Shown: one piece after another, positions 16,885 to 17,646 of the stretch
How the letters are laid out: every line of letters starts with the position of its first letter
Position numbering within the stretch: the first letter of the stretch is position 1
Origin: a virus
Length of the DNA stretch: 64,000 nucleotides
Direction: 5' to 3' (one strand)
Virus record (IMG/VR): IMGVR_UViG_3300035704_000001
Coordinates: 1-64,000 of that record
Position numbers and translations under genes: made by a program
The notes under the pieces: model-generated
The model's input: the letters and a program-made list of their open reading frames with translations, nothing else
What the model was told of the DNA's origin: nothing
Database searches by the model: none

Positions 16885-17646
16885 ATGAGCGTCTGGTCAA
16901 CAGCTAACAGCTCACCGACCAAGGACCCGCGCGTGCGCGTCGGGCAGTGGGGCGCCGGCAACTGGCGCACCCTGGTGCGGGACGATGACGACTGGAACGA
17001 GACCGGCCCGCCGTATCCGAGCAAGGCCATCGCCCTGGGCCACGTCGATGACGTGCTGGCCGGCTACTTCGGCGAGCTGCCCAGCCGGGCCCTGCTGGCC
17101 GAGCGGATCGAGCAAGCCGTGGTCATCGCCCGTGATGCTTTCGACGCGGACAGCATCGCGCTTCCGCGGCATGTCATCGTGCGCATGGTCGAGGCGCTGA
17201 CGGGCAGCCGGGAGGCGCTTTACCTGCGCAAGCCGGCGGAGCTGCGCGAGGAAGACCTGGAGGTGTCCACGGTGCGGCCGGAAGCCATCCCGCACGGCAG
17301 CGGCGGCCAGACAGTCGGGCAGTTCGACTCCTACGTCCGCGTCATGCACAGGCCCACCGGCATCGTGGTCGAACGCGATTCCGAGCGCTCGCAGCTGATG
17401 AACAAGTCCGCCGCGCTGGACGAGCTGCGCCGCCAGCTGGTAAGTCAGCCGGCCTACCCGCTGATCACCGTCAGCGTGCTGGGCGACATGTTCGACCCGT
17501 ACGAGCTGCGTACCCGGGTAGCGGCGCAGCTGCGCGCGGGCAGCGTCGAGGAGATGCACGTGGGCCAGTTCACGGACGAGGCCGCGAGCGACGACTACGC
17601 CGCGGTGCTGGCCGTGGCCCGGCGCTGGGTCCGGGTGTACTCATGA
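16885..17646 (+). CDS. multidomain protein with RF-1/GGQ peptidyl-tRNA hydrolase domain
   Basis: EEDLEVSTVR...GSGGQTVGQFDSYVRVMHRPTGIVVERDSERSQLMNKSAALDELR; CAGGGAAGGCA leader. Confidence 0.88.
   Translation: MSVWSTANSSPTKDPRVRVGQWGAGNWRTLVRDDDDWNETGPPYPSKAIALGHVDDVLAGYFGELPSRALLAERIEQAVVIARDAFDADSIALPRHVIVRMVEALTGSREALYLRKPAELREEDLEVSTVRPEAIPHGSGGQTVGQFDSYVRVMHRPTGIVVERDSERSQLMNKSAALDELRRQLVSQPAYPLITVSVLGDMFDPYELRTRVAAQLRAGSVEEMHVGQFTDEAASDDYAAVLAVARRWVRVYS

Follow-up and report, generated by a model that had tools for sequence, protein, structure and literature searches.

The stretch of DNA analyzed here (referred to as the window) comprises the first 64 kb of a viral genome of 150,822 bp, which is complete according to CheckV. 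The G+C content of this uncultivated phage is 71%, and nearly every gene lies on the plus strand. Its left arm encodes a sigma-70-type factor, DpdA, a DNA helicase and a DnaB-like helicase, and 36 tRNA genes are located at 92.8–98.9 kb of the genome. Our subject is a gene for a modular protein with a GGQ motif (P0001, hereafter the GGQ protein), which lies approximately 75 kb from the tRNA array. The features at and around this gene are listed below.

13491–14756, plus strand: phage factor of the sigma-70 type with regions 2 and 4, joined to a zf-HC2 anti-sigma domain (context gene)
16079–16211: block A, near-identical in the related loci L004 and L005
16392–16572: block B, near-identical in L004 and L005, with a predicted closed multi-helix junction
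16872–16878, plus strand: ribosome-binding site GGGAAGG, 6 nt 5' of the ATG
16885–17646, plus strand: coding sequence of the 253-aa modular GGQ protein (open reading frame and coding signal)
16909–17022, plus strand: beta-sheet core of the N module, aa 9–46, motifs T.DPRVRV, NWRT and W.(I/E)TGPPYP (alignment and model)
17023–17220, plus strand: helical part of the N module, aa 47–112, motif VDDVL..YFGE.P.RA.LA.RIE.A (alignment and model)
17239–17445, plus strand: minimal bacterial-type release factor (RF) peptidyl-hydrolase core, RF domain 3, aa 119–187 (Pfam, profiles and fold)
17302–17310, plus strand: GGQ catalytic motif (GSGGQTV), aa 140–142 (sequence)
17446–17643, plus strand: C module, aa 188–253, a divergent member of phrog_1933 (profile match, alignment and model)
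17643–18089, plus strand: translationally coupled downstream gene, 148 aa, without a family match (context)
18750–19649, plus strand: DpdA, 7-deazaguanine DNA transglycosylase family, E 5e-77 (context gene)

The order of genes in close relatives was the same: the sigma factor, 1.1–1.4 kb without coding signal, the RF-like gene, small genes and DpdA. The sigma-70/zf-HC2 fusion, which ends in a long Ala/Pro-rich tail, was encoded upstream of the RF-like gene in every relative examined. DpdA, four genes downstream of the GGQ gene, also followed the RF-like gene in close relatives, and its presence suggests that the phage DNA may be modified. Across 16.5–24 kb of the window, similarity to GenBank phage DNA was found for DpdA genes only; the matches listed came from Mycobacterium phages, where the gene is annotated as queuine tRNA-ribosyltransferase, and from two Streptomyces phage records. 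Composition and these DpdA matches point to a high-GC actinobacterium as the probable host. PADLOC returned no match, and no tmRNA, Pth or RtcB gene was found in the 150.8-kb phage genome.

The GGQ gene is a real gene. Its coding signal was strong throughout 16885–17646 (GC1/2/3 = 0.72/0.47/0.90), and coding signal, judged by GC content at codon positions, was absent from the 1.4 kb upstream. The ribosome-binding stretch, ACGCAGGGAAGGCATGATATG, was identical in L004 and L005. Because the first residues, MSVWSTANSSPTKDPRV, and the adjoining upstream DNA are conserved in relatives, the ATG at 16885 is taken as the true start; a later start, as in database entry P0002, was rejected because conservation reaches this ATG. 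The stop codon TGA overlaps the ATG of the next gene (ATGA). A mini-ORF of two codons (ATG ATA TGA) at 16880–16888 of the window overlaps the GGQ start codon (ATGATATGAGC), and it was conserved in L004 and L005.

A region of 1.4 kb without coding signal (15500–16880) separates the sigma-factor region from the GGQ gene. It contains blocks A and B, whose sequences hardly differ among the window, L004 and L005 although the flanking proteins are just 72–87% identical. Block B folded with a minimum free energy of -118.6 kcal/mol (z -3.8), and block A recurred at 5354–5550 of a more distant locus, L006, right after its sigma gene. No Rfam family was found on 14700–17000 of the window. The region with blocks A and B is likely to represent one or more structured RNAs.

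Another observation concerned TTA codons. In-frame TTA was rare in this phage (23 in 204 ORFs), and no tRNA-Leu(UAA) was present among its 36 tRNAs. Just after TTA, GC3 collapsed at positions 44429 and 61448/61493 of the window, and at 74248/74287, 83436 and 104210 of the genome. Downstream of these codons GC3 was 0.38–0.56 and the ORF continued for 8–54 codons into the next gene. A published precedent exists in Streptomyces phages for recoding that depends on UUA (PMC10732093). Several of the sites read TTACAG or TTAACAG, so that a regulatory motif in DNA or RNA is an alternative to a translational signal.

An earlier note, made from the DNA alone, had proposed that the GGQ protein contains an intact RF domain 3 with GGQ at 17302–17310, flanked by an unassigned N-terminus of ~110 aa and by a C-terminal module likened to a free-standing small phage protein. 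The central domain was borne out, with the motif at exactly this position. Pfam RF-1 (PF00472) matched aa 119–187 with E 4.2e-15 and 56 bits against a cut-off of 35, covering only positions 6–71 of the 116 in the profile. The core residues H.PTGI.VE..SERSQ..NK were retained. We placed the domain among RF1, RF2, ArfB and PrfH by ranking profile and PDB scores. NCBIfam profiles ranked prfB (53.6 bits) above prfA (50.6), PrfH (41.1) and ArfB (17.3), all far under the family cut-offs (370–423 for prfA/prfB, 166.65 for PrfH TIGR03072 and 100 for ArfB NF006718). Sequence matches in PDB were RF1 (Thermotoga maritima, 7e-10), mtRF1, RF2 and domain 3 of PrfH, with mtRF-R marginal (E 0.06–0.15), and ArfB gave no match in this search. 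The AlphaFold2 model of the full-length protein was weak overall (mean pLDDT 61). However, the RF-1 fold that the note had asked for was predicted: aa 115–195 of the model matched RF1 (6osk) with Z 8.3 and an rmsd of 3.5 over 72 residues, and other matches were mtRF1, mtRF-R (7a5h, Z 7.5) and PrfH (7sa4, Z 6.3 and 5.9), the whole range being Z 8.3–5.9.

The domain differs from characterized factors in two respects. First, the segment 3' of GGQ reads TVGQFDS instead of the canonical HVNKT(D/E)S. This type of replacement, unlike all characterized factors, is the signature of a small phage subfamily, which can be written as GG(Q/L)T(T/V)G.(F/Y)D.YVR(V/I)TH.PTGI. Second, the GGQ protein contained no part by which RF1/RF2, ArfB or PrfH are known to be targeted to ribosomes. 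As the note had stated, there was no codon-reading domain (the RF-1 profile was the only release-factor match; PCRF was absent by profile search and PF03462 gave no match) and no basic tail like that of ArfB/YaeJ (pI 5.2 for the whole protein and 4.8 for the C module, with all segments acidic). It is reasonable to suppose that recruitment to ribosomes would need another route than these parts. An RNA partner, one of the routes that had been suggested, found no support: in L006, three real genes lie between block A and the RF-like gene, and upstream block A was dropped as a candidate partner of the GGQ protein for the same reason.

The N-terminal ~110 aa matched no Pfam and no PHROG family, in line with the early description. 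In the AlphaFold2 model its beta core (aa 9–46) had pLDDT 83–87 and was followed by helices. Structural comparison yielded no convincing fold match for this module, and nothing resembling MTRES1 or S4-like domains. The invariant or near-invariant residues were T12, D14, R16, R28, T29, W37, T40, G41, A50 and V54. Members of the family were seen solely on phage-like or metagenomic contigs. An exhaustive profile-free search revealed free-standing N modules of 58–130 aa (P0015, P0016, P0017, P0019, P0023, P0026, P0036, P0101 and others), as well as N modules fused to other sequences (P0018, P0032, P0066, P0091 and P0034) or contained within the 1882-aa protein P0133. In P0014, the helical part alone preceded the RF core. 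No match was found by tblastn against 50,697 GenBank phage records, and a pattern scan of 185,579 species genomes detected no relative. In IMG/VR, a scan with the whole-protein alignment found nothing, and the N-module alignment identified two loci, neither with a nearby RF gene. Since the module occurs with no RF gene in the vicinity on three other phage contigs (L017, L018 and L019), it is not a dedicated RF adaptor. A separate case was P0029 (160 aa), in which the N-module core is combined with ~85 aa from the C-terminal end of the third ORF downstream in the window (18089–18526; 45% identity over 109 aa); it probably arose by deletion across the same syntenic gene block in another phage.

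The C module was indeed related to a free-standing small phage protein. It matched the phrog_1933 profile with E 2.7e-5 (positions 6–70 of 71) and shared 38% identity across 65 aa with gp87 of Mycobacterium phage CRB2, a stand-alone protein of 73 aa which is itself a firm phrog_1933 member (E 9e-26) and through which we collected the family. A custom HMM built from this collection (alignment A5) matched the C module with E 4.7e-26, a value obtained with the query itself included in the alignment. The phrog_1933 family consists of at least 329 clusters of mostly unnamed stand-alone proteins of ~66 aa, and its Atlas clusters are mostly viral. The C module keeps the family invariants P, G, DY and W. 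However, it is fused rather than free-standing, and near-invariant motifs are changed, G(Q)DGNA (GQDGNA in the stand-alone proteins) to GDMFDP and SGDYD to SDDYA. A model from the family alignment had pLDDT 87.6 and showed a strand, three helices and a strand. Every match in a fold search of this model against PDB had Z below 5, and a search for homologues of aa 186–253 among shorter proteins gave no candidates.

We then considered how stable the three-part fusion is. It was real in the GGQ protein and in P0003, which comes from a different sample, is 83% identical and has the identical layout; it was not constant, however, even in close relatives. P0280, 93% identical over 185 aa, ends straight after the RF core, and the next ORF, of 58 aa, is unrelated; P0004 and P0005 (72–76% identity) carry a tail unrelated to the C module. 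L006 (P0013, 52% identity) has a phrog_1933-like module immediately 3' of the RF-like gene, but shifted to the -1 frame; the module has separate start signals, GGAGG-N5-GTG, which overlap the P0013 stop. The frame 5' of this GTG still codes for a homologue of the first strand of the module, which points to a gene that was recently split, to a frameshift or to a mistake in the assembly. The RF-like gene of the same locus also contains a tandem duplication (ADAMAELMRQLGARR twice); duplication and module together fall within 7560–7935. In contrast to the C module, the N-RF fusion was retained down to 52% identity (P0013). The N-plus-RF part was 87% identical to that of the L003 relative, with DpdA at 82% in the same pair. 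Elsewhere, the RF core was joined to phrog_16141-like (P0008), phrog_19867-like (P0009), Cys-rich (P0006) and other modules. As the C module was gained or lost between close relatives (P0003, P0280, P0004 and P0005), sequence comparison identifies the N-RF part as the conserved unit and the C module as an accessory. Two further analyses were neutral. A complex prediction of the N-plus-RF part with the C module gave no answer (score 0.00) and counts neither way, and dN/dS was 0.43 for the RF core versus 0.33 for DpdA, a comparison that is uninformative as synonymous sites are GC3-saturated.

These data leave considerable room, though somewhat less than an even chance, for the explanation that the three-part layout is a product of phage mosaicism, in which a phrog_1933-type gene was captured in frame and, if active, functions independently of the RF core. 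The close relative P0280 without a C module, the unrelated tails in P0004 and P0005 and the separate frame and initiation signals in L006 all fit such a capture, as do the otherwise free-standing state of phrog_1933 proteins and the loss of the near-invariant DGNA motif in the C module. On the other hand, the fusion is common to two sequences from different samples at 83% identity, and the module still adjoins the RF-like gene in the 52% relative, which suggests that the linkage may predate a single accident.

Stand-alone GGQ domains in phages are already known: the families phrog_3122 and phrog_20323 are named 'RF-1 domain peptide chain release factor', proteins of cluster C mycobacteriophages are annotated likewise, and RF-1-domain genes have been reported as core genes of mycobacterial tRNA arrays, for which extra rescue capacity was proposed (PMC5966550). 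What is new here is an architectural variant with N and C modules. Phage families of stand-alone RF-1 proteins matched aa 123–187 of the GGQ protein (phrog_19918, 1.7e-10; phrog_35727, 8e-9; phrog_3122, 1e-7; phrog_20323, 4e-7), and matches in BFVD were phage RF-domain proteins of 64–194 aa. These proteins, such as Alice gp197 of cluster C and that of Pseudomonas phage phiPsa315, share with the GGQ protein a minimal GGQ core without a codon-reading domain, and they often occur in tRNA-rich genomes, as it does. However, they are mostly 64–200 aa long and lack its flanking modules. The GGQ protein belongs to a subfamily with a distinct signature, to which an N module and a phrog_1933-like C module are added. 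Burroughs and Aravind, in surveying the RF-PH families of bacteria, list RF1, RF2, ArfB and PrfH, and phages go unmentioned (PMC6514570); we found no phage bare RF catalytic domain with a tested function in the literature.

Cellular factors offer further comparisons. The GGQ protein shares domain 3 with RF1/RF2 and is without domains 2 and 4 (PxT/SPF) and the N-terminal domain 1. Like ArfB/YaeJ/ICT1, it has a GGQ domain and no codon recognition, so codon-independent release is the expected chemistry; however, those factors use a linker and a basic C-terminal helix for the mRNA channel, whereas its tail is predicted to be an acidic folded module. By profile and PDB scores its core is nearer to RF1, RF2 and PrfH than to ArfB or ICT1. 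PrfH, to which the fold matches noted above extend, is likewise a truncated release-factor relative and serves rescue after attack on the translation apparatus, but it has a codon-recognition remnant and an RtcB neighbor; in our phage RtcB is absent, and the TIGR03072 score falls far short of its cut-off. Another similar case is mtRF-R (C12orf65) with MTRES1, where a GGQ-only factor reaches peptidyl-tRNA on the split large subunit by means of a separate module. This is a mitochondrial two-protein system, however, and no similarity to MTRES1 was detected in the N module.

To our knowledge, the only job of RF domain 3 is to enter the A site of the large subunit and trigger peptidyl-tRNA hydrolysis. 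Because of this and because GGQ is intact, codon-independent release or rescue is the likeliest function. Our favored reading, tentative and at a little under an even chance, is that the GGQ protein hydrolyzes peptidyl-tRNA on the ribosome irrespective of the codon and thereby frees ribosomes that have stalled. What we infer about ribosome binding, catalysis, substrate and the part played by each flanking module would run as follows. During infection, stalled ribosomes may arise from cut mRNA or tRNA, or at hungry codons. Since the protein has no codon-reading domain, ribosomes with a free or stalled A site are its likely targets. The RF core would reach into the peptidyl-transferase center by way of the A site of the large subunit, its GGQ loop would trigger hydrolysis of the peptidyl-tRNA ester there, and release of the nascent chain would return ribosomes to the pool needed by a phage with 36 tRNAs. 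The N module, as the more stable partner of the core, probably gives recruitment or specificity, and the phrog_1933-like C module is an accessory whose presence varies between close relatives.

Several observations argue for the hydrolase reading. The RF-1 match is above the Pfam cut-off, the fold is RF1-like and GGQ is kept in close orthologues. The N-RF part is conserved (87%, compared with 82% for DpdA, with the fusion extending to 52% identity). The genome has 36 tRNAs but no phage tmRNA, Pth or RtcB. RF-1-domain genes have been tied to tRNA arrays (PMC5966550), and mtRF-R/MTRES1 sets the example of a GGQ-only protein whose targeting depends on a separate module. A rescue function would also agree with the broader view that phages mend translation systems under attack (PMC7824862). 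Evidence against this reading is that there is no known targeting element and all parts are acidic, that TVGQF instead of HVNKT is unlike all characterized factors, that the N module occurs elsewhere without an RF gene and that the gene is ~75 kb from the tRNA array.

A further point against it came from a survey of GGQ in 15 representatives bearing the subfamily signature. GGQ was present in 9 of the 15, including all close orthologues, and in P0003, P0004, P0005, P0280 and P0006 both the motif and the flanking core residues were intact. Other members had GGL (P0008, P0013 and P0024), GGP (P0028) or no GG motif (P0022 and P0009). Thus, conservation of GGQ, on which the earlier note had staked its proposal, was seen among close orthologues and not across the subfamily. 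In a small tree, P0013, P0028 and P0008 clustered (support 0.88), and P0024 and P0022 were placed elsewhere, indicating that the motif was lost more than once. In release factors, activity depends chiefly on both glycines and on the backbone NH of the Gln residue; Pro at this position abolishes activity, and a change of Gln to Leu may retain hydrolysis. By this analogy, GGL members may still hydrolyze, whereas no hydrolysis would be expected of members with GGP or without the motif.

This variation means that the selected function of the family may not need hydrolysis, and it leads to the main rival explanation, which we consider possible but rather unlikely: the GGQ protein would be a non-catalytic ribosome binder, either using the RF core as a portable anchor in the A site and peptidyl-transferase center that carries interchangeable modules, or competing with RF1, RF2 or tRNA. 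Replacement or loss of GGQ in about 6 of the 15 representatives, with the rest of the core conserved, is what such a binder would show, and so is the combination of one core with many different N and C modules (P0008, P0009, P0006 and others). However, GGQ is exact in the GGQ protein and in all its close orthologues, and GGL is no proof of lost activity.

We regard as improbable the proposal that the protein is a host shut-off effector, i.e., an unregulated hydrolase that aborts host translation soon after infection by making elongating ribosomes release their nascent chains. The location of the gene in the early/middle left arm, just 3' of a phage sigma factor and amid small genes, would suit such a role, and no stall-sensing element was found in the protein. 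Nevertheless, phage mRNAs share the same ribosomes and no feature suggests that host translation is told apart from that of the phage, the RF core would be kept out of any A site already occupied, and the 36 phage tRNAs favor supporting translation rather than destroying it. Finally, it is conceivable but very improbable that the RF core serves these actinophages as a movable catalytic unit to be combined with exchangeable adaptors, and that the N module directs it to unreadable codons, chiefly UUA, as a conditional stop; this reading would build on the missing tRNA-Leu(UAA) and on the collapse of coding signal after in-frame TTA in at least five genes.

Phages carry many copies of bare RF catalytic domains, and the present protein offers experimental handles on them: a GGQ core that is intact, an N module that folds well and is kept with the core down to 52% identity, and a labile link to phrog_1933. 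Its natural variants (GGQ, GGL, GGP or none, each flanking module being present or absent) already supply a series of mutants. If it acted as a conditional stop at UUA, the protein would be a new type of factor made of protein only, and phrog_1933 would become linked to translation; a non-catalytic binder would represent a novel means of manipulating the peptidyl-transferase center. If the GGQ protein is a rescue factor, as we favor, it would be a counter-measure to host attack on tRNA or mRNA which complements the phage tRNA array.
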